DNA of 32,000 bases from Candidatus Brocadia sp. (GCA_021650915.1 CP091279.1:2550001-2582000), one strand, 5' to 3'. Positions 7,068 through 32,000 are shown, numbered from the stretch's first letter. Program-made: numbers and translations. The notes: generated from the letters alone by a model not told the origin.

Positions 7068-8558
7068 TCAGAAAAACAACGTTCCGTTAAATTGCAATTG
7101 TTTATCGACTTTCGTTTTTAACTCCTCTTCATCCAGGGCAAAGCCGGGACTGATCTCAATTGTACCAATTACATTGCCCTGCGAATCGGTGGGGATGGAA
7201 ACACCAATATTCCGTAACCATCGTCCAAACTGATTAATCATATCTTGTCTTGAGGTCGCTGGCGAATTTTCCCCTTCCATATTTTTTACGGGTGAAAACT
7301 CGTCTTCACGCGGCACCTCCATAATCACGCTTTTTTTAACGTATCTCAATATATCAAAAATAAAACTTTCGAATTTAATTGCATTGTTTTGCTTAGGATC
7401 GATCACACTGCCATCTTCACCTAAATATGGTACCTTTTTTATTGCAGCATGATACGGGAGAGACTCTCCTTCCTGGTATACCTTTTCAAGGAAATTGATA
7501 TTTATCATGTGTACTGCAATGTTTCCGGCATGATATTTCAGCGCGCCGTCTTCGTTTTTTGCGTACATATCTTTACGGCTGAGTTCGCTGTATTCAATCA
7601 TGTGTAAATTTCCATTGATATAGACTACAATTCCCACCTTTTCTTCGGCGTGGCATTTTTTGACGACTTTTAACGATATCTCAGCTTCGTCTCGTAAATG
7701 GTATCCAACGAAAACAGGGTCCGCAATCTTTATTAGAACATTGTCAACCTGATGATAGAAGATATTTTTAATGCCGCGGCGCTTCATGTCGTTAAGAACG
7801 CCTTTTTCCTTAAGGGCAACAAGTACCCCACCGTGTCCGTTGGGACTCATAATGATATTTGATTTTAAATCCATCATGACATTTCCCTGCAGGTCAACAA
7901 CAGGAAACATGTCTTGTGTAAAAAAGAACACCTGCTGTGGGTTCAATCCAAAAAATTGACGCTCTTTGAAAAAATTTTGTGTCGCGGCGTCATTATTTTT
8001 ACTGGTCATGATGTACCACGGGATTCTGATATTGTACCTTTTTTGGCCGGCAATTATTTTTTCTGCGTGGAGTTGAAAAATACTCTTTTGGGTAATTGGT
8101 GTGATGGAGAATGTGCCCTTCGGCACACTGATTCCCATCCTTGTTCCGTCTCCACCAGCAACCGTAAGGATGGCAACTTCTCCTTTTTGTAAGGAACTTT
8201 CACCAATAAGCTTCACCCTCTGTGCCATTTCCTTTTCAGCATCATTTTTTTGGAATGCTATAACATGGGGGGGAGTTAAGTTCTCTTGGGATGTTTGTGC
8301 TGGTCTCAATACTGCGCTATTAAAAAGCTTCTTTATAAGACAGAAATCAATCGTTGCTATCTGATCTAAAAGATTCTTTTTTTCTGAGGGAGTTAATTCA
8401 CTCCACCACCTAAAGATATGAGACTGGCCAGCATCAAAGACCTTTTCAATATGGCGAACAAAGGCCGGGTATTCCTTTTCCAATAGTTCTCTTGTTAAGA
8501 TTTTGTTATTTGCCGGATAATCTATAAATGGCAAATGAGTATGTTTCATAAATACCAT
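7068..8558 (-). CDS. UDPGP type-1 family nucleotide-sugar pyrophosphorylase (UDP-N-acetylhexosamine / UTP-sugar-1-phosphate uridylyltransferase, UAP1-like)
   Basis: 496-aa ORF. Glycine-rich nucleotide loop LTVAGGDGTRMG, then PKG...I, MSPNGHGG, YHQVDN and an EKVG segment characteristic of the PF01704-type (eukaryote-like) pyrophosphorylases. Confidence 0.8.
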   Translation of the reverse strand: MVFMKHTHLPFIDYPANNKILTRELLEKEYPAFVRHIEKVFDAGQSHIFRWWSELTPSEKKNLLDQIATIDFCLIKKLFNSAVLRPAQTSQENLTPPHVIAFQKNDAEKEMAQRVKLIGESSLQKGEVAILTVAGGDGTRMGISVPKGTFSITPITQKSIFQLHAEKIIAGQKRYNIRIPWYIMTSKNNDAATQNFFKERQFFGLNPQQVFFFTQDMFPVVDLQGNVMMDLKSNIIMSPNGHGGVLVALKEKGVLNDMKRRGIKNIFYHQVDNVLIKIADPVFVGYHLRDEAEISLKVVKKCHAEEKVGIVVYINGNLHMIEYSELSRKDMYAKNEDGALKYHAGNIAVHMININFLEKVYQEGESLPYHAAIKKVPYLGEDGSVIDPKQNNAIKFESFIFDILRYVKKSVIMEVPREDEFSPVKNMEGENSPATSRQDMINQFGRWLRNIGVSIPTDSQGNVIGTIEISPGFALDEEELKTKVDKQLQFNGTLFF

Positions 8559-22318: not shown

Positions 22319-22416
22319 TTTGGAGAGCGTTTGTTGGAAAGAGGGTATCATTGACTGAATGTTCGAAAGATCGGCATTTTAACTCATAGGTAATCTTATT
22401 GTGAAAGGAGTTGAAG

Positions 22417-23166
22417 ATGAAGATATTAGAAAATATTAAACAACCCTTCTGGATGGGTCTGGTTGTTTTGACAGCTATGCTGACAATGCCTGGTATCGTG
22501 TTGTCTGCATCGAAACAGAAACAGAATAGGGGTTTTACTGATTCTTTCATGTTCGATGAGTGCACCGGTTTTTCATCCACCGGATGCAATCCCTTTTTCA
22601 TTCTTGAACCAGGCCATCAGCTCGTTTTGGAAGGAACTGAAGATAATGAAGAAATCAAATTGATCATAACCGTGCTTGATGAGACCCAGGATATAACGAC
22701 AAACGAGACAGGTCTCGTAACAACCAGGATCGTGGAAGAAAGAGAGTCTATTGACGGTGAGTTGTTTGAAGTCTCAAGGAATTTCTTTGCGATATGCAAT
22801 CGGGATAACAGCGTATTCTACTTTGGAGAGGATGTGGATTTCTACGAAGATGGAGTGATCGTCAGCCACGATGGTTCCTGGCGGGCGGGTGTTGACGGAG
22901 CAAGGGCTGGCATCATCATGCCGGGGACGATCCTCCTGGGTTCCCGATATTTCCAGGAGGTAGCGCCAGACGTTGCCATGGACAGGGCTGAAATTTTGAG
23001 TATAAATCAGGTTGTAAAGACACCGGCAGAGGAGTTTAAAAACTGCCTGAAAACAAAGGAGACCACGCCCCTGGAACCAAACGCAAAGGAATTTAAATTT
23101 TATGCACCGGGGGTTGGACTCATAAAAGATGGCGTGCTATTGCTTACCGAAATAAATCACCTGTGA
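22417..23166 (+). CDS. secreted protein of unknown function
   Basis: The ORF is open from TTG 22411. ATG at 22417 lies 6 nt after AAAGGAG. Signal peptide (FWMGLVVLTAMLTMPGIVLSA|SK). The mature part is beta-rich (FFILEPGHQLVLEG, VFYFGEDVDFYEDG, GSWRAGVDGARAGIIMPG, TTPLEPNAKEFKFYAPGVGLI). It resembles a widespread uncharacterised secreted-protein family, but I cannot name a domain. Confidence 0.75.
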   Translation: MKILENIKQPFWMGLVVLTAMLTMPGIVLSASKQKQNRGFTDSFMFDECTGFSSTGCNPFFILEPGHQLVLEGTEDNEEIKLIITVLDETQDITTNETGLVTTRIVEERESIDGELFEVSRNFFAICNRDNSVFYFGEDVDFYEDGVIVSHDGSWRAGVDGARAGIIMPGTILLGSRYFQEVAPDVAMDRAEILSINQVVKTPAEEFKNCLKTKETTPLEPNAKEFKFYAPGVGLIKDGVLLLTEINHL

Positions 23167-23532: not shown

Positions 23533-23838
23533 ATGGCAGAAAAGAATGAGATAGGAACAATAACCCTCAAAATTGATCAGCAACAACTCAGGAAGATTGC
23601 CACTTCAGGCAGGCTTGAGAAATTTATTGAGAAGGCAACCGAACTTTTCAAGCGAGACCTGAAAGCAGAGTTGGTAAAGGAAAGTGTTTCGTCATCGGAA
23701 ACCGCCCTCTTCCTTTACGATGATGAATTTGGCACCGGGCCACGACCTCCTCACTGGCACAATATTGCGAGAATAGAACTCCTGACTTCAAGGTTAGAAG
23801 TGTTGGAACAATCTGTTCTGAAGGCCACGAGACAATAA
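23533..23838 (+). CDS. small hypothetical protein (101 aa), helical N-terminus, Pro/aromatic-rich centre
   Basis: Good SD (AAGGAG) 6 nt upstream of the ATG. No signal peptide and no Cys. Contains the segment GTGPRPPHWHNIARIE. No recognisable family. Confidence 0.6.
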   Translation: MAEKNEIGTITLKIDQQQLRKIATSGRLEKFIEKATELFKRDLKAELVKESVSSSETALFLYDDEFGTGPRPPHWHNIARIELLTSRLEVLEQSVLKATRQ

Positions 23839-23949: not shown

Positions 23950-24000
23950 ATCTTGCACCCGGCAGTAAAGTCGAAGAACAAAATTTTCATGGAGATAGGT

Positions 24001-25134
24001 ATGGAGAACCGAACAGCGGAAAAACACCAGCCCGATAATCTTTCAGAGTTTTTAACCCGAACGGGAAATCTCTTAATCCATCTGCTGAATCAGTGCAATT
24101 TGAGCTGCGAGCATTGTTATCTTGACGCTTCGTCCGGGGGCGACTCGGCATTACCCCTTGATTTAGTGAAACGCACCTTAGATGAAGCGCATGATTTAGG
24201 CATTCAATCAGTGCAGTTCAGTGGTGGCGAGCCTTTTCTCTATCCTCACCTTCTTGAGGTGTTATCAGAAACAAAAGGAAAAAATTTTCAGGTGGTGTTA
24301 TCCACGAACGGAACACTCTTCGACGACAAGGCTATAGACCTCCTTGCTGAAACACGCGCCTCTGTGGTAACGAGCATTGATGGTCCGGCGGCTTATCACG
24401 ACCTATTCCGTGGAAAGAAGGGGAGTTTTGCTAAAACAGAGTCGGGTATTGCCCGTCTCGTTGACCGTGGCGTGAAAGTGCGGATAGTAACAACGGTTTC
24501 CGAGGATAGTTTTCAGCATATCGACTGGTGTGCCGAATGGGCATATAAAATGAAAGCCGGCATCCTGCAATTTCAGCCGCTTGAAGGCATTGGCAGAGGA
24601 AGGAATATCGCACATAAGCGCCTTTCTGAGGATCGACTCCATGACCTTTTCCTCCATTTGAATGACCTCGCAGTATCGTATGCTTCCAAAGGGTTGCACA
24701 TCAAGATGACCTATCAAAGCCGGGACTATATGGTTACCCATCCCTGCTCGGCCTTTGTCTGCAATGGAACGGACTGCCACCGGGGGGTTGATAAAGAACT
24801 GAAAAAGATTGTTATCCGGGAAGATGGCTCCATACTGCCTGAACTGGTGGATATTGACCGGCAATTTTCTATAGGCAATCTCCATAACGATACGCTGAAA
24901 AACAATTTAATCCTGTATCTCCGTGAGAAATATTCGCTCTTTGACCAACTCTGCCGTGAGGTCTACGGTGATACGGTGCCGAAATATTCATCCCCTCTGA
25001 TCCCCTGGAATGAAATTTTAACGGAGAGAAGCAGACTGTTTAAGCCAGCAAAGGAAGGAGAAGAAGGAAAACAATTGCCTCTTGAAGTAGGCTGCTGCTC
25101 CGACACATCCCTTCAAGAAGGACTGAAGTCTTAA
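24001..25134 (+). CDS. radical SAM enzyme with a Cys-containing C-terminal auxiliary (twitch/partial-SPASM-like) region
   Basis: The ORF is open from 23953. ATG at 24001 is preferred because GGAG lies 9 nt upstream. CX3CX2C cluster motif CNLSCEHC. GGEPF SAM-binding motif. STNGT. Later Cys cluster HPCSAFVCNGTDCHRG and a C-terminal VGCC. Confidence 0.85.
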   Translation: MENRTAEKHQPDNLSEFLTRTGNLLIHLLNQCNLSCEHCYLDASSGGDSALPLDLVKRTLDEAHDLGIQSVQFSGGEPFLYPHLLEVLSETKGKNFQVVLSTNGTLFDDKAIDLLAETRASVVTSIDGPAAYHDLFRGKKGSFAKTESGIARLVDRGVKVRIVTTVSEDSFQHIDWCAEWAYKMKAGILQFQPLEGIGRGRNIAHKRLSEDRLHDLFLHLNDLAVSYASKGLHIKMTYQSRDYMVTHPCSAFVCNGTDCHRGVDKELKKIVIREDGSILPELVDIDRQFSIGNLHNDTLKNNLILYLREKYSLFDQLCREVYGDTVPKYSSPLIPWNEILTERSRLFKPAKEGEEGKQLPLEVGCCSDTSLQEGLKS

Positions 25135-25670: not shown

Positions 25671-26906
25671 ATGAAAAATATTTTTTTTATTGCGGTTCTC
25701 ATTTTTATTGCACCATTCGTCCTGACTACGGGTATCTTTGCTCAACTCCCGCACTTTCTCATTCCTCCGGCAGAATTTAAGGCATTCGATACGCCGAACG
25801 ACGCAGGGGAGACGGTATCACTGACGTGGCCAGCTTCTCCCAGCGACGCCCCCGATGTTTTTTACGTGGTTTACATCGACAAGAATAAAAACGGCGCCTT
25901 TGAAAAGGAGGCGATTCGCTTCAAGTCGAACACTTGCTATCGAACGGGTGTTCCTGAAATCTACGGTCATAAAAAATCGAATGAAAATTATCACTATGTT
26001 CAGATATTTCCCAGAAAGGTGTTCAACGCGGAAACGATCGATACGGGGCAAGTCTACTACTTCAAGTTAGCAATGGTCTCGGAGGATAGTAAAATTGTCC
26101 TGGATACGGTAGCCTCTGCCAGGGCGCGCGGTAATTGGTTGCACACAAAAAAGGCAAACAATTTTCTCATCATGATTACCCTCTCGGCCATTATCCTCTA
26201 TTTTATCGTGCACGCCAGGAGAAATCCTAACCTGTCCTTGCGAAAGATCAGCGGCCTGGATGCCGTGGATGAAGCTTTGGGCCGCGCTACGGAAATGGGT
26301 AAGCCCGTCCTGTTTGTTCACGGGCTAACCGGCATGGGAAGCATATCGACCATAGCGGCAATAAGTATTTTGGGCAGGATTGCACGGAAGATTGCAGATT
26401 ATGATGCAAACTTAAAGGTTGTGAATAACGACCCCATTGTCATGTCTGTGAGCCAGGAGGTAGTGAAGGAATCGTACCTTGAGGCGGGACGTCCTGATGC
26501 TTACAATCCGGACAATGTCTTTCTGGTGGCCTCAGAACAATTTCCGTATGTCGCAGCCGTGGGTGGTATTATGACCCGAGAAAGACCCGCCGCCAATTTC
26601 TTCGTCGGCTATTTTTATGCGGAGGCATTGATCCTGGCAGAAACCGGCGCCTCTACTGGCGCAATTCAGATCGCCGGCACCGACGCCTACACCCAGTTGC
26701 CCTTCTTTATTACCACCTGTGATTATACCCTGATTGGGGAGGAGCTTTATGCAGCAAGCGCCTATTTGTCGAGGGAGCCAATGCTAATGGGTACGCTCAG
26801 GGCACAGGATGTGGGAAAGGGGATCCTTATTATTATATTGATATTGGGTACCTTATTAGCTAGTTTTGGGCTGACATTTGTCACACATCTGTTTGAGGCT
26901 TTTTAG
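25671..26906 (+). CDS. membrane protein of unknown function (signal/TM, FN3-like exodomain, TM, about 200-aa conserved-looking domain, C-terminal TM)
   Basis: 411-aa ORF. N-terminal hydrophobic helix. Beta-rich region with FDTPNDAGETVSLTWPASPSD. TM (FLIMITLSAIILYFIVHA). Then ISGLDAVDEALGRATEMGKPVLFVHG...IAGTDAYTQLPFFITTCDYTLIGEELYAASAYL. Terminal TM (GILIIILILGTLLASFGLTFV). Confidence 0.75.
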   Translation: MKNIFFIAVLIFIAPFVLTTGIFAQLPHFLIPPAEFKAFDTPNDAGETVSLTWPASPSDAPDVFYVVYIDKNKNGAFEKEAIRFKSNTCYRTGVPEIYGHKKSNENYHYVQIFPRKVFNAETIDTGQVYYFKLAMVSEDSKIVLDTVASARARGNWLHTKKANNFLIMITLSAIILYFIVHARRNPNLSLRKISGLDAVDEALGRATEMGKPVLFVHGLTGMGSISTIAAISILGRIARKIADYDANLKVVNNDPIVMSVSQEVVKESYLEAGRPDAYNPDNVFLVASEQFPYVAAVGGIMTRERPAANFFVGYFYAEALILAETGASTGAIQIAGTDAYTQLPFFITTCDYTLIGEELYAASAYLSREPMLMGTLRAQDVGKGILIIILILGTLLASFGLTFVTHLFEAF

Positions 26907-26963
26907 ATAAGACGAAGACAATGCCATCGATAATTCAGGAAAAAATCCTGCAATTCTGTAAAG

Positions 26964-27365
26964 GTGCTCTGGTTAAATAAAGAACTCTTAGAGAAAAACA
27001 TTTTCAATGCGGCTGACAGAACAGCAACAAACAAAAACATTACCAAAGCACTGTTGAAGCTTTTTAAGCCTGAAAATGAAACGACAATGAATGCACTTCT
27101 CGACCACTCAATCTCTATAGCAGACGACTATTTGACTCACGGGAATGAGTATAGTGTATTTAAAGAGCCAAAGTTCTTAGAAAAAGGGAGTGATTTAAAT
27201 ACCTTTCTGAATTGGGAACAGCTTGGTAAAGGAAAGGATTACACTCCGCTACTTGATAATCTAATTGCACAGTATAAAATCGTCCTAAAGATCGGCATAC
27301 ACGGCCAACCTAAATACAGAGATATGATAAGAGACATTATTCTTGCTAATGATACGATAGAATAG
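26964..27365 (+). CDS. hypothetical protein, possibly the frameshifted remainder of a longer gene
   Basis: 133-aa ORF with a non-ATG start in AT-rich DNA. A 19-codon ORF with a proper ATG (26921, MPSIIQEKILQFCKGALVK*) ends in another frame just upstream. No recognisable domain. Confidence 0.4.
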   Translation: MLWLNKELLEKNIFNAADRTATNKNITKALLKLFKPENETTMNALLDHSISIADDYLTHGNEYSVFKEPKFLEKGSDLNTFLNWEQLGKGKDYTPLLDNLIAQYKIVLKIGIHGQPKYRDMIRDIILANDTIE

Positions 27366-27470
27366 TGGGGTTAGGATATTTCGTTTTACTGATACGGGAG
27401 ATTTGTCACACTTCTCATGGGATTTGCGGTTGGGTGAATAAAAAATTAAGTAACGGAAATGTAAGTAAAG

Positions 27471-27902
27471 ATGAAAATTTACCTGGATAATTGTTGTTTT
27501 AACCGTCCATTTGACGATCAATCTCAGCTTAGGATCAGACTTGAAACTGAAGCAAAATTAAAGATCCAGGAAGAAGTTCGGGCAGGAAAATTAAAATGGT
27601 CATACATATTGGATTATGAAAATAGTAAAAATCCATATGAAGAACGAAAGTTCCGAATCAGAGGATGGGCAAAATATGCTTTAATAAATATTAAAGAAAA
27701 CGCTGAAATAATTAAAAGAACGAATTTATTGAATCAAAAAGGATTTAGAAAATTGGATTCCTTGCATATCGCATGTGCCATAACTGCAAAATGTGACCAC
27801 TTTCTTTCCACTGATGACAAAATCTTAAGTTTGTCCAAAACATTAGAGGGAAAGATAAAAGTAACTGATCCAATAGTTTTTATAAAGGAAGTTTTATCAT
27901 GA
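27471..27902 (+). CDS. PIN-domain protein (putative toxin)
   Basis: 143-aa ORF. The N-terminus MKIYLDNCCFNRPFDDQSQLRIRLETEA is the hallmark of a recurrent PIN subfamily. LDSLHIACAI and FLSTDDKIL supply the other acidic residues. Confidence 0.7.
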   Translation: MKIYLDNCCFNRPFDDQSQLRIRLETEAKLKIQEEVRAGKLKWSYILDYENSKNPYEERKFRIRGWAKYALINIKENAEIIKRTNLLNQKGFRKLDSLHIACAITAKCDHFLSTDDKILSLSKTLEGKIKVTDPIVFIKEVLS

Positions 27903-28150
27903 TTACAGATACGGAAATAAGGCTAAAGGGGCTCAAGATACTTACAGAATTTCTTGGAGATGTTGAAGCGGAGCGATTTATTTCCCTTATTCAAAGAGAG
28001 CCATTTGATTATACAAAATGGCGGCAAGGATTGGACGAAGACTTATCAATCGAAGAAATTAGTAAAAGGGCAATGGCTATACGGAAAAAAAATAGTATTC
28101 TGGTTAAATACAATTTTTATAAAGGGGTTTTAGCAAGCAGGCAATTATGA
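27899..28150 (+). CDS. small partner protein of the PIN gene (putative antitoxin)
   Basis: 83-aa ORF with ATGA overlap to the PIN gene. LKILTEFLGDVEAERFISLIQREPFDYTKWRQ resembles the small proteins that usually accompany this PIN subfamily. Its stop overlaps (ATGA) the start of the next membrane gene. Confidence 0.55.
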   Translation: MITDTEIRLKGLKILTEFLGDVEAERFISLIQREPFDYTKWRQGLDEDLSIEEISKRAMAIRKKNSILVKYNFYKGVLASRQL

Positions 28151-28800
28151 ATTTTCTAAAACGTACCATCCCTCTCATCATCGCCTTTGTCATGGGCGTG
28201 CTCATGGCAATGCAATACTATGTACCTCACAAACTGTCACAGGACTTGCTGGAGGTGGTATCCAAATGGGACAGACTGATAGCGGGTTTTGCCGTATTTA
28301 TTGGCGCCTATAGCCTGCTCCATCTCCACTGGACAAGAATAAAAAGGAAGATGGAAGGCTGGGGATACAGCGTCTTTGTCTATTTCGGAGCGATTATTAC
28401 CCTCTTCTTTGGTTTTCTGAACGGGGGAAAATTTTTCTGGAATGACAAGCAGGAAGGAACGATGTTTGACTGGCTTTATTCCTATGTACAAGTGCCTACA
28501 GGAGCCACGATCTTTTCCATTCTGGCCTTTTTTATCGCATCTGCGGCCTACCGGACCTTTCGCGCCCGCACCAATGAATCGACGGTATTGTTGATTGCCG
28601 CTATCCTCGTTATGCTCGGAAGGGTGCCCATCGGGAATTATATTTCGCAATACATTCCTGCTATAGCCGATTGGATTATGGCGGTTCCCAACCTTGCGGC
28701 AAAGCGCGGCATCCTTCTCGGGGTAAGCCTCGGCGCAATTGCAACCTCCATCAAAATCATCTTTGGCATCGAACGGTCGTATCTGGGCGGAGGTGATTAA
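28147..28800 (+). CDS. polytopic membrane protein of unknown function
   Basis: 217-aa ORF with about 5-6 predicted hydrophobic helices (IPLIIAFVMGVLMAM, LIAGFAVFIGAYSLL, VFVYFGAIITLFFGF, ATIFSILAFFIASAA, VLLIAAILVMLG, GILLGVSLGAIATSI). There is a 1-nt overlap (TAATG) with the next gene. Confidence 0.75.
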   Translation: MNFLKRTIPLIIAFVMGVLMAMQYYVPHKLSQDLLEVVSKWDRLIAGFAVFIGAYSLLHLHWTRIKRKMEGWGYSVFVYFGAIITLFFGFLNGGKFFWNDKQEGTMFDWLYSYVQVPTGATIFSILAFFIASAAYRTFRARTNESTVLLIAAILVMLGRVPIGNYISQYIPAIADWIMAVPNLAAKRGILLGVSLGAIATSIKIIFGIERSYLGGGD

Positions 28801-29615
28801 TGGAAAGATTTTTACGGATAGACCGCCGCATTATCTTTGCAATCATCACAGTCGCCGTTATCGTCTCTCTTATCTTGCGGTTTGAACTGCCCATACCCGC
28901 CTCGGATCCGGTTCAGGGAGTATATGGAAAAATAGAGTCATTGCCGGCGGGTTCCCATGTCATGATCGCCTTTGATTATGACCCTGCCTCAAAGGAAGAA
29001 CTCCAACCCATGGCTATTGCCTTCCTGCATCACTGTTTTAGCAGGGACTTAAAAGTCATTGGCATGACCCATTATCCGGGCGCCCCAGGTCTTGCTGAAC
29101 AGGCAATGACCATGGTGGCTAATCAATACGGAAAAAAACAAGGAGAAGACTACGTCTTCTTAGGTTACAAACCCGGCTCGGCATCCCTCATTATCAACAT
29201 GGGGGAAAACCTGTATTCGGCATTCCCCAAGGATTTCTACGGGAATGATACCATGACGTTACCGGTCTTGCAGGGTATTGATTCATTGCGGGAAATCAAA
29301 TTCTTATTCGATCTTGCAGCGGGGACAACGATAGAGACATGGATAGCCTTCGGGAAGGAAAAGTATAAATTTGAACTCGGTGCGGGATGCACCGCCGTGA
29401 TGGGCCCTGATATGTATCCTTTTCTCCAGTCAAAACAACTGACCGGTTTGCTCGGCGGCCTCAAAGGCGCAGCCGAGTATGAGACGCTGGTCAGGAAAAA
29501 GGGCAGCGCCGTAAATGGTATGCGTCCTCAAAGCGTAGTCCATGTAATTATAATTATTTTTGTTATCTTTGGCAATATCATCTATTTTACAACCAGAAGG
29601 GCGCGGCATGCGTAA
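28800..29615 (+). CDS. bitopic membrane protein of unknown function, weakly similar to the C-terminal domain of the 25671-26906 product
   Basis: 271-aa ORF. N-terminal TM (IIFAIITVAVIVSLIL), a domain of about 200 aa, and a C-terminal TM (VVHVIIIIFVIFGNIIYF). By-eye colinearity with 25671-26906: GSHVMIAFDYDP vs GKPVLFVHGLTG, DYVFLGYKPG vs DNVFLVASEQ, GAGCTAVMGPDMYPFLQSKQLTGLLGGLKGAAEYE vs IAGTDAYTQLPFFITTCDYTLIGEELYAASAY. Confidence 0.7.
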   Translation: MERFLRIDRRIIFAIITVAVIVSLILRFELPIPASDPVQGVYGKIESLPAGSHVMIAFDYDPASKEELQPMAIAFLHHCFSRDLKVIGMTHYPGAPGLAEQAMTMVANQYGKKQGEDYVFLGYKPGSASLIINMGENLYSAFPKDFYGNDTMTLPVLQGIDSLREIKFLFDLAAGTTIETWIAFGKEKYKFELGAGCTAVMGPDMYPFLQSKQLTGLLGGLKGAAEYETLVRKKGSAVNGMRPQSVVHVIIIIFVIFGNIIYFTTRRARHA

Positions 29616-30357
29616 GGATTCTAATTTTCTCATCTTAGTAGGCACCATTGGATTGTTTGTCTGCATCAATATCTTTTTAATGGCCTCAGGGAAACTCCCT
29701 TTCTCTTCCGATGGGTTTGGCATTATCCTTGGCGCTGGACTTACCCTGGCCATCTACAGCTTCCTGTATAAAGACAATCCAGCCTTCAAGATCGCCGAAA
29801 ATCTTTACGTGGGCGTTTCCCTGGGGTATACCATTATCATTACCTGGTTTAATTTTTTAAAACCCGATCTCTATGACCCCCTCATTGTGCCTATGTTTTC
29901 AAAGGCAGCCACAAAGTCCCCCCAGTATGCGTTACTCATTCCCTCTCTTTTGGGCATCTTTATGCTGCTCAGATTTTCGAGGAAATTATCGTGGCTGAGC
30001 CGGTGGACCTTTGCATTTGTGGTGGGTCTTGGGGCGGGGGTAAGCATTCCACGAGTCATCTCAGCATTCATCCTCGAACAGATCAAACCTTCCTTACAGC
30101 CCGTCTTTTCATCAGGCGAAACGGTATTCTCCAGCATCAACACGCTCCTGATCATGCTGGGGGTTATCTCGGTGCTTATCTATTTTATCTTCTCCGTCGA
30201 ACACAAAGGCGCGATTGGAAAGATATCAAAGATTGGCATCTGGTTCCTCATGATCTCCTTCGGCGCATCCTTCGGCTATACGGTCATGGGCAGGTTATCG
30301 TTACTCATCGGCAGAATTCAGTTTTTGCTCAGGGATTGGCTGGGGATTTTGCAATAA
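29608..30357 (+). CDS. polytopic membrane protein of unknown function
   Basis: The ORF is open from 29560. ATG at 29608 (MRKDSNFLILVG) gives an 8-nt overlap (ATGCGTAA) with the upstream gene. About 7 hydrophobic helices. Confidence 0.75.
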   Translation: MRKDSNFLILVGTIGLFVCINIFLMASGKLPFSSDGFGIILGAGLTLAIYSFLYKDNPAFKIAENLYVGVSLGYTIIITWFNFLKPDLYDPLIVPMFSKAATKSPQYALLIPSLLGIFMLLRFSRKLSWLSRWTFAFVVGLGAGVSIPRVISAFILEQIKPSLQPVFSSGETVFSSINTLLIMLGVISVLIYFIFSVEHKGAIGKISKIGIWFLMISFGASFGYTVMGRLSLLIGRIQFLLRDWLGILQ

Positions 30358-30478: not shown

Positions 30479-32000
30479 ATGCCACGTATCTTCGATAACA
30501 TAGGGCAACAACTCCTCCCTGCGCGGCTGGAAGCAACTTGACAAATACATCGAACAATGGAATGGCGGCGAAGGAAATTCCTGCAGGCTCCTTGTTGGCA
30601 TGCAGAAGCCTCCCCATGAACAATTAAGGCAGTTCTACAGCCTCCTTCCCCAGGATGATGCCATAAGCAATCAGGTTATTCTTCGCCTCAAGAAAAAACT
30701 GGCTGAGGATTTTCGAAATCAGCTTACTCTTGGCGCGCCAACGGATGAAGACGAAGCAGGCCTTCGCCGCCTTGCCTCTCAACTGAAAGCAGGAAAGGTC
30801 GTTGTTAAACTCTTTCTTAAACATCCGCTCCACGCCAAACTTTATCTCTGTTTCAGGCAGGATACGATCAATCCTATCATCGGCTATCTCGGTTCAAGCA
30901 ATCTCACCCTTGCAGGGCTATCTCAGCAAGGTGAACTGAATGTGGACGTCCTTGACCACGACGCTGCGCAAAAACTTGCAAAATGGTTTGAAGACCGCTG
31001 GAATGACCGCTGTTGCGTGGATATAACGAATGAACTGATTAGGGCCATAGAAGAGAGCTGGGCAAGAGAAGAGGCATTGTGCCCTTACTGGATTTACATC
31101 AAAATGGCGTATCACCTTGCTGAGGAGGCAAGGGCAGGATTGTCTGAATTTGAGATTCCCCGCGATATGCGCAATATACTCCTTGAGTTCCAATCTGCCG
31201 CCGTTCGTATCGCTGCGCGCCATCTTGAAAAACGGGGCGGGGTTATCCTTGGCGATGTCGTTGGATTAGGAAAGACCCTTATGGCAACAACGCTTGCCAG
31301 AGTCTTTCAGGAGCCGCCTCATCTGCTTGAGACACTGATTCTCTGCCCTAAAAATCTTGTCTCCATGTGGGAGGGTTATGTGCATCGCTACCGGCTGATT
31401 GCAAAAGTTGTGTCAATCACCCAGGCACAAAATATCCTCCCAGAACTCCGCCGCTACCGGCTGGTAATCATTGATGAAAGCCATAATCTCCGCAACCGCG
31501 AAGGCAGACGGTGGGCAGTAATCAGAGACTATATTGAAAGAAATACGAGCAAATCTATCCTCTTATCCGCAACACCCTATAATAAGGTTTATCTTGACCT
31601 TGCCAACCAGTTGAGGCTGTTTCTTCATGCGGATGATACCATCGGCTTTCGTCCGGAGGAATACCTTCGCCGTGAGTGCGGTGGCAGGGTGGATGAATTT
31701 ACAAGGCGGCATCAGTGCCCTGTCAACTGCCTGTCTGCCTTTGAAAAGAGCGGATATTCAAATGACTGGCGGGAACTCATGCGCCTGTTTATGGTGCGCA
31801 GAACACGAAGTTTTGTGGAAAGAAATTATGCATATACTGAATGTCAGGCTTGCAACGCTATTCTTACGCCAACTCAGAATAATTGTCCTTCATGCGGACG
31901 AATTAAGTCCAAAGACGACAAAAGGTTTTTAATTCTTGAAGGCGATGTCCGTTTTTATTTTCCCAAGAGGTCTCCCAGGACGCTTTCCTTCGACTGTAGT
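30479..32000 (+). pseudogene. PLD-nuclease / SNF2-family helicase fusion, damaged at the 5' end, continuing beyond the window
   Basis: ATG 30479 (MPRIFDNIGQQLLPA) runs into a stop at 30539-30541. The rest of the protein is in another frame, open from 30504 to the window end (RGWKQLDKYIEQWNGGEGNSCRLLVGMQ...). PLD signature HAKLYL...GSSNLT. SNF2/DEAD motifs GDVVGLGKTLMA and IIDESHNLRN. From memory, homologues carry roughly 25 further residues between LLPA and RGWK, so I infer an out-of-frame deletion. The first in-frame ATG is at 30600. Confidence 0.65.

Follow-up and report, generated by a model that had tools for sequence, protein, structure and literature searches.

Four genes, here designated P1 to P4, were analyzed in a 32,000-nucleotide stretch of DNA from Candidatus (Ca.) Brocadia sp. 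(GCA_021650915.1, CP091279.1:2550001-2582000; hereafter the window). Hydropathy indicated that all four encode membrane proteins, and together they form one conserved, co-oriented, and translationally coupled unit. Judging from their sequences, we tentatively favor the reading that P1–P4 are the membrane-embedded half of a seven- to eight-gene, ATP-driven mechanotransmission system of the cell envelope, whose operon is split into two loci in Brocadia-, Kuenenia-, and Jettenia-type genomes. More tentatively, it is possible that the eight genes (F158, F124, the ATPase gene F601, F375, and P1–P4) represent an undescribed class of ATP-powered, envelope-spanning machine distributed over at least ten FCB/PVC phyla, and that the spacers of its operon in anammox genomes serve as sinks for selfish cassettes.

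An earlier note on this DNA had described four membrane-protein genes, the last three with overlapping junctions suggestive of translational coupling, and both statements were verified. The four open reading frames (ORFs) were present (Table 1), and the independent gene calls of Kuenenia gave products of 420, 217, 271, and 249 amino acids (aa) with the identical 8-nt overlapping P4 start, which was also backed by ortholog alignment. The P2/P3 junction was TAATG, preceded by the Shine-Dalgarno sequence GGAGGTGA, and the P3/P4 junction was ATGCGTAA, with an overlap of 8 nt. P3 was 100% identical to a protein from a Brocadia metagenome-assembled genome, and P1 was 98% identical to a protein of Ca. 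Brocadia sp. UTAMX2.

A scan with a P3 profile, using one genome per species, returned at least 551 loci, the best 80 of which were analyzed. These 80 covered about ten phyla and included Brocadiales, Planctomycetaceae, Latescibacterota, Gemmatimonadota, Zixibacteria, Omnitrophota, Poribacteria, Ignavibacteria, Eisenbacteria, and Coatesbacteria. The order P1-P2-P3-P4 on a single strand was found at 80/80 loci, P2 being displaced in one only (L073), so that synteny is far above chance and the proposal that the four genes co-occur, and in relatives adjoin one another without the DNA inserted between P1 and P2 of the window, was borne out. The module was not found in plasmid and phage collections. 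Ratios of nonsynonymous to synonymous substitution (dN/dS), computed against Brocadia relatives free of the insertion, were 0.06-0.08 for P1, 0.03-0.04 for P2, 0.06-0.07 for P3, and 0.035-0.045 for P4, which identifies P1–P4 as functional genes rather than remnants. One could otherwise regard them as unrelated neighbors or decaying, non-functional remnants disrupted by the inserted islet, given that the islet separates P1 from P2–P4 and that the surroundings are rich in remnants of mobile and defense elements. This explanation has next to no probability and is refuted by the conservation and selection data: besides the conserved order and the low dN/dS, all four ORFs are intact, and the same islet is kept in two other species whose modules are likewise intact.

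Clustering of the flanking ORFs revealed that P1–P4 are usually part of something larger, with the same-strand order (F158)-F124-F601-F375-P1-P2-P3-P4 in most lineages, F124 being a small protein. DNA reaching 3.5 kb or more upstream of P1 was available at 63 loci; at 45 of these, F601 and F375 lay directly upstream on the same strand, and in Latescibacterota the F375 stop overlapped the P1 start by 4 nt. The main exceptions were the Brocadia-, Kuenenia-, and Jettenia-type genomes, in which the DNA upstream of P1 varied from genome to genome; these genomes encode the ATPase, at ~90% identity, in a second locus together with F375. Neither the ATPase gene nor F375 nor any other gene of the upstream half occurred within the window. 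The four-gene unit of the earlier note thus stood, but not its self-containment, because most lineages have it as the downstream part of a seven- to eight-gene operon that includes an ATPase. A gene for a family-5 solute-binding protein (SBP_bac_5) preceded the operon at 15 Latescibacterota loci; this gene and the large downstream proteins of that phylum were judged to reflect phylum-specific synteny and were rejected as core members.

F601 (~600 aa) was recognized as a GlmL/MutL-family ASKHA ATPase by a full-length match to the Pfam family MutL (PF13941; E = 1e-122 to 1e-130) and by two invariant ASKHA phosphate motifs, DCGSTTTK and DIGGATTD. Its identity across phyla was 65-76%. The nearest NCBIfam models were GlmL and the GlmL-related ornithine-degradation protein, with scores that remained below the cut-offs (236 bits vs 475, 216 vs 600, and 172 vs 204), and weak Hydantoinase_A matches were also obtained. 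By these sequence measures F601 is a member of the GlmL/MutL superfamily and not an equivalog. It resembles the GlmL/MutL proteins of B12-dependent glutamate mutase and the ornithine-degradation protein (PF13941, TIGR01319) in its full-length match and both ASKHA motifs, but differs from these accessory proteins in having ~120 extra C-terminal residues, in scoring far below the equivalog cut-offs, in lacking mutase neighbors, and in sharing an operon with six membrane or unknown proteins. The conserved neighborhood of F601 contained no genes for mutases or B12-binding proteins.

F375 (375 aa) belonged to no family. It contained a weak RnfC_N-type barrel-sandwich match (E = 0.001-0.003, below the Pfam threshold), followed by a Gly-rich α/β region and a small β domain; beyond a weak KOW-like tail in F375, sequence-profile searches of the PDB with F375 and the ATPase gave nothing useful. 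A biotin/lipoyl attachment lysine in the barrel domain was considered and rejected, as the lysine was not invariant. The weak RnfC_N match also led us to consider an Rnf/Nqr-like redox complex, which likewise combines a peripheral subunit with two bitopic and two polytopic (~220-250 aa) subunits. However, the module contains no Rnf-Nqr, FMN_bind, or Fe-S families and has an ATPase instead of NADH- or ferredoxin-binding modules. Ortholog alignments of P2 and P4 showed no conserved Cys or His, which disfavors a redox machine, and the Rnf/Nqr-like complex was rejected on both grounds.

The earlier note had assigned no recognizable catalytic or transport signature to the four proteins. This was correct as far as catalytic and transport families in Pfam, NCBIfam, PADLOC, and PDB sequences are concerned, but P1 is not without a family: aa 153-407 matched DUF6754 (PF20539) with 399.6 bits (E = 5.8e-120; model positions 2-256 of 257), exceeding the gathering score of 27 bits over the whole model, and P1 orthologs with long N-termini matched it likewise. 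DUF6754 carries the invariant motifs GRATEMG, GRPD, and CDYTLxGEELYAASAYL, and more than 50 positions, many of them acidic or polar, are invariant across phyla. Hydropathy indicated a signal peptide, a transmembrane (TM) helix at aa 164-182, and a C-terminal TM helix at aa 385-403. The AlphaFold2 (AF2) model of P1 featured a confident β-sandwich (predicted local distance difference test, pLDDT, 85-90) ahead of DUF6754, and Foldseek related it to Ig V and FN3 domains in the PDB (E ~1e-4; TM-score 0.3-0.5 on the target). Together with the signal peptide, this is in keeping with the exported FN3-like region that had been suggested for P1. A search of P1 with Pfam fn3 gave no match, and some P1 orthologs are named "fibronectin type III domain-containing" by NCBI. 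The sandwich is absent in some lineages (the ectodomain is missing in L065 and L067), while in others its place is taken by N-terminal extensions of 300-770 aa without a Pfam family (the non-anammox loci L043, L045, L056, L063, L066, L074, and L078).

The enzyme-like conservation of DUF6754, with its more than 50 invariant positions, and the NCBIfam models nearest to F601 would suit a different arrangement, in which the GlmL-like protein, in the role proposed for GlmL, EutA, and DdrA, acts as chaperone or reactivase of a membrane enzyme whose catalytic part is DUF6754 and whose anchor or supply is P2–P4. We consider this quite unlikely, since the ATPase scores far below the equivalog cut-offs, its conserved neighborhood holds no mutase or B12-binding genes, and the confidence of the AF2 model is too low to assign DUF6754 a fold. 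A B12-binding DxHxxG-like motif in DUF6754 (VLFVHG) was also rejected, because its His is conserved only within Brocadiales.

In contrast to P1, the other three proteins had no family: P2, P3, and P4 gave 0 matches in Pfam and NCBIfam, where the window proteins and 29 orthologs of each were searched, and hence none to known transporter or assembly families such as ABC, MFS, Rnf/Nqr, MotA/ExbB, FtsX, and Sec/Tat. Profiles of P1, P2, and P4 had no match among PDB sequences at E ≤ 1, and the P3 profile returned only noise. P1–P4, the ATPase, F375, F124, and the three ORFs between P1 and P2 (I1-I3) had no match to PADLOC models, and an anti-phage defense system was rejected on this basis. Hydropathy gave ~6 TM helices for P2, and the positive-inside rule predicts both of its termini to be inside; it carries the invariant motif SAAYRTFRAR...MxGRVP and is enlarged to 447 aa at one locus (L059, positions 1255-2598). 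P4 carries the invariant motifs SFLYxDNxxxKxxE and FGAxFGxTxMxRxSLxIGR.

The P3 family is large, with 4,330 representatives at 50% clustering and E ≤ 1e-3 (2,827 at E ≤ 1e-10), and despite this has no Pfam model. The AF2 model of P3 (pLDDT 71, predicted TM-score 0.71) showed a Rossmann-like β-α-β domain between two TM helices. The N-terminus bears an invariant DRR that is predicted to be cytoplasmic, the C-terminal TM helix bears polar Q/H/N residues, and the soluble domain has conserved residues at E67, H78, D117, and D145. A highly conserved segment reads GCTAV...YPFLQSxQLxGLLGGLKGAAEYE; residues 198-217 are the most conserved part of the protein, yet the part modeled with the lowest confidence. 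Some P3 homologs have insertions in the soluble domain, namely HEAT repeats in P0400 (643 aa) and, in P0405 (838 aa), a CARDB adhesion-type domain, and other homologs of 340-540 aa have insertions without a family.

The earlier note had also read a domain of P1 as colinear with the soluble part of P3 and had proposed a self-contained heteromer of four subunits, built from P1 and P3 as paralogous bitopic subunits and from two polytopic ones. By eye, both proteins indeed share a TM helix, a helix-strand-helix α/β region, a conserved amphipathic segment, and a C-terminal TM helix, and the four genes do stand alone in Brocadia-type genomes. Paralogy was examined by BLASTP and by hhalign in local, greedy, and global modes, with domain-only profiles (P1 aa 186-411, P3 aa 30-271) and reversed-profile nulls. 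BLASTP of P1 against P3 found nothing, and hhalign of the ortholog profiles gave a probability of 0.6-1.5%, the sole aligned piece being a TM helix. The domain-only comparison scored 18.7, vs 17.8 and 16.6 for the reversed-profile controls, and a deeper P3 profile scored 19.5, vs 18.1-19.2 for its controls; the scores thus equaled the nulls. A comparison of P2 with P4 by hhalign was negative as well, and both the P1-P3 and the P2-P4 paralogy were rejected at the sequence level.

Predicted membrane sidedness argues in the same direction. In P1, the signal peptide and exported sandwich are followed by a TM helix and a positive ARR...RK loop, and the positive-inside rule therefore predicts that DUF6754 is cytoplasmic. 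In P3, the N-terminal DRR is followed by a TM helix, the domain, a second TM helix, and then RR, from which the domain is predicted to be extracytoplasmic. With one soluble domain inside and the other outside, P1 and P3 would not be equivalent subunits. Since most phyla moreover join the four genes into a longer operon, the self-contained heteromer is very unlikely, and the notion of two paralogous bitopic subunits failed every sequence test.

In the envelope system that we favor, P2 and P4 would form a polytopic membrane core, and the cytoplasmic DUF6754 domain of P1, possibly together with the DRR tail of P3, would be the site at which the ATPase and the adaptor F375 dock. P3 would supply an outward-facing Rossmann-like domain in addition to this short cytoplasmic tail, a placement that fits the CARDB insertion in one of its homologs. 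As the ASKHA protein binds and hydrolyzes ATP, this could be transmitted via the membrane core to the outward-facing domains, so that the envelope is acted on by the P3 domain and by the variable ectodomain of P1; such mechanotransmission would serve to assemble, remodel, or export an envelope component, not to carry out redox or ion chemistry. In the monomer models, AF2 could not place the best-conserved segments of P1 and P3, as expected at subunit interfaces, which hints at interfaces in both proteins.

Several points weigh against this reading. The topologies of P1–P4 are predictions from hydropathy and the positive-inside rule, and gene order alone suggests physical interaction among P1–P4, the ATPase, and F375. 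The AF2 model of DUF6754 had a pLDDT below 50 and was too poor to use, and Foldseek searches of the PDB with the P3 model returned only generic Rossmann folds (best E = 1.4e-3, TM-score ~0.3). The ATPase genes did not adjoin the module at 16/63 loci, and the distant ATPase copy was seen in Brocadia-type genomes only. Finally, GlmL-family proteins are otherwise linked to soluble B12 mutases and not to membranes.

The same components could alternatively make up a new uptake system, with P2/P4 as channel or carrier, P3 as a tethered substrate-binding domain, and the cytoplasmic ASKHA protein, with F375, as an ATP-dependent enzyme that traps or converts the substrate and so couples its import to metabolism. 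The relatives of ASKHA proteins include ATP-dependent enzymes (hydantoinases, oxoprolinases, and kinases), in line with the weak Hydantoinase_A matches of the ATPase; residues E67, H78, D117, and D145 of the outward P3 domain could form a ligand site; and a solute-binding gene does precede the operon at the 15 Latescibacterota loci. Nevertheless, this neighbor is restricted to one phylum, no similarity to any transporter family was found, the conserved core comes without catabolic genes, and the adhesin-like, variable ectodomains (FN3, CARDB, and the long extensions) better suit an envelope-facing role. We therefore rate uptake as rather unlikely.

Known machines offer partial parallels to the proposed envelope system. 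The PilM-PilN-PilO and GspL-GspM platforms of type IV pili and type II secretion likewise join bitopic membrane proteins to a cytoplasmic protein of the ASKHA fold. By analogy, signal transfer across the membrane could run through a short conserved cytoplasmic N-terminal peptide (here the DRR of P3) and through periplasmic domains. Unlike these platforms, the module has no sequence match to the PilM, PilN, PilO, or GspL/M families, it includes two polytopic subunits as well as DUF6754 as a large cytoplasmic domain, and genes for secretins or pilins are absent. The type VII ATP-binding cassette (ABC) systems MacB, FtsEX, and LolCDE would be similar in that cytoplasmic ATP hydrolysis moves a TM-flanked extracytoplasmic domain with no substrate crossing the membrane, but here there is neither an ABC ATPase nor an FtsX-type permease, the energizer being an ASKHA protein.

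Table 1. Features of the P1–P4 locus, with positions counted from the first nucleotide of the window.
Feature	Position	Strand	Description
P1	25671..26906	+	411 aa: signal peptide, β-sandwich, TM, DUF6754, TM
P1 exported β-sandwich	25773..26120	+	aa ~35-150, accessory, variable
P1 DUF6754 region	26127..26891	+	aa 153-407; TM, soluble domain, TM
AT-rich islet	26907..28146	+	1,240 bp, three co-oriented ORFs, inserted
Islet ORF I1	26964..27365	+	133 aa, no family; possibly a gene fragment
Islet ORF I2	27471..27902	+	143 aa, PIN-like putative toxin, below Pfam threshold
Islet ORF I3	27899..28150	+	83 aa, small partner ORF, no family
P2	28147..28800	+	217 aa, polytopic, ~6 TM, no family
P3	28800..29615	+	271 aa, TM at each end, extracytoplasmic domain (predicted), no family
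P4	29608..30357	+	249 aa from the ATG inside ATGCGTAA, polytopic, ~7-8 TM, no family

The P1-P2 spacer of the window holds an islet with a GC content of 0.32-0.37, vs 0.46-0.51 in the genes. As the gap between P1 and P2 in orthologous loci is usually 9-22 bp (9-20 bp outside Brocadiales; 15 bp at L010 and 22 bp at L012), the islet was identified as an insertion, and the proposal that a once contiguous module was split by AT-rich foreign DNA was confirmed. Its I2/I3 half (27460-28093) was 86-89% identical to DNA at the corresponding site of Ca. Brocadia carolinensis (L027) and of locus L013, where the I3 orthologs were 85-91% identical; I1 was not shared with either. I2 scored 15.5 bits against PIN (E = 0.027; cut-off 23.6), its L013 ortholog scored 17.1 bits (E = 0.0089), and acidic residues at PIN-like positions could be read from the sequence (D6, D96, D110, and D115/116). 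I3 overlaps at its start with the I2 stop and at its stop with the P2 start, in both cases by ATGA, and neither I3 nor the other islet ORFs matched an antitoxin family.

The cargo of this spacer differed among anammox genomes: a HEPN and nucleotidyltransferase (MNT) pair at L006 and L017, PD-(D/E)XK (GxxExxY) genes at L009, L057, and L011, and IS200-type transposases at L033 and L036, all cassettes lying on the operon strand in AT-rich DNA. The P1-P2 spacer is therefore a recurrent landing site in anammox genomes, in which different small selfish cassettes have been captured independently. In being small, AT-rich, and intergenic, with two genes in overlapping ORFs, the islet resembles type II toxin-antitoxin cassettes (VapC/PIN, HEPN-MNT) and IS200 elements. 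It differs from classic VapBC in that the small ORF follows the PIN-like gene instead of preceding it, and from type II toxin-antitoxin cassettes in that the PIN match of I2 is below threshold and I1 and I3 have no family. At the second locus of Brocadia (L081-L083; for example, 7749-7958 and 10113-10406 of L083), a PD-(D/E)XK/GxxExxY gene was situated just upstream of the MutL-family gene, and in L083 a PIN_10/DUF5615 gene was found in the spacer between the MutL-family gene and F375, mirroring the islet of the window.

No terminator-like site was found on the + strand within the islet, and a promoter-like site was located at 27253-27280. The co-oriented ORFs, the ATGA overlap with P2, the missing + strand terminator, and the strong selection on P2–P4 (dN/dS 0.03-0.07) make expression through or from the islet likely, and P2–P4 are probably transcribed by read-through or from within it; the earlier suggestion of expression through the islet is thus plausible.

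The DNA on either side of the module contained other features. Upstream, a c-di-GMP-I-GGC riboswitch variant (RF03167; 22172-22282, +; 63.6 bits, gathering score 59, E = 5e-13) lies just before an ORF (22411-23166) for a 251-aa protein with a signal-like N-terminus and no family. A radical SAM/SPASM-type enzyme of 393 aa (23953-25134, +; Radical_SAM E = 1.8e-22), whose best NCBIfam models are peptide and heme maturases, all far below cut-off, is preceded by a 101-aa ORF without a family (23533-23838, +), and the two could be a peptide-maturation pair; none of the related loci had this pair conserved ahead of P1. On the 3' side of P4, positions 30520-31215 and 31680-31833 were 89-91% identical to an intact gene of L011 (9700-10656) that encodes a 318-aa PLD-like/NgoFVII-type nuclease and is followed by an MmeI-like methyltransferase gene. 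Because it is poor in ORFs, with no long one, and is interrupted by ~460 bp of inserted DNA, the DNA downstream of P4 looks like a decayed restriction-modification remnant.

Within the literature searched, no publications were found that mention DUF6754, the accessions of the Pfam families, or the locus tags of Brocadia and Kuenenia, broader searches being swamped by mismatch-repair MutL and unrelated "GLML" strings; the view that the function of P1–P4 is undescribed therefore stood. By sequence comparison, six of the eight protein families are without a described relative. For these two reasons, we rate the system as outside the known kinds, its function and assembly being inferred from gene order, conservation, and predicted topology.

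If our reading is correct, P1–P4 would belong to a widespread multi-subunit membrane system that has so far had no name, and three of its four membrane proteins are without a Pfam model. It would also be the first case in which an ASKHA ATPase of the GlmL/MutL branch is connected with a membrane complex and would widen the known ways of energizing the envelope; the 65-76% identity of the ATPase across phyla is a level usual for core machinery. The P1-P2 spacer offers a natural example of selfish genes riding on the transcription of a host operon. For anammox bacteria, the strongly selected membrane module (KsCSTR_34040 and its neighbors in Kuenenia) provides a target to look for in proteomes and tomograms.

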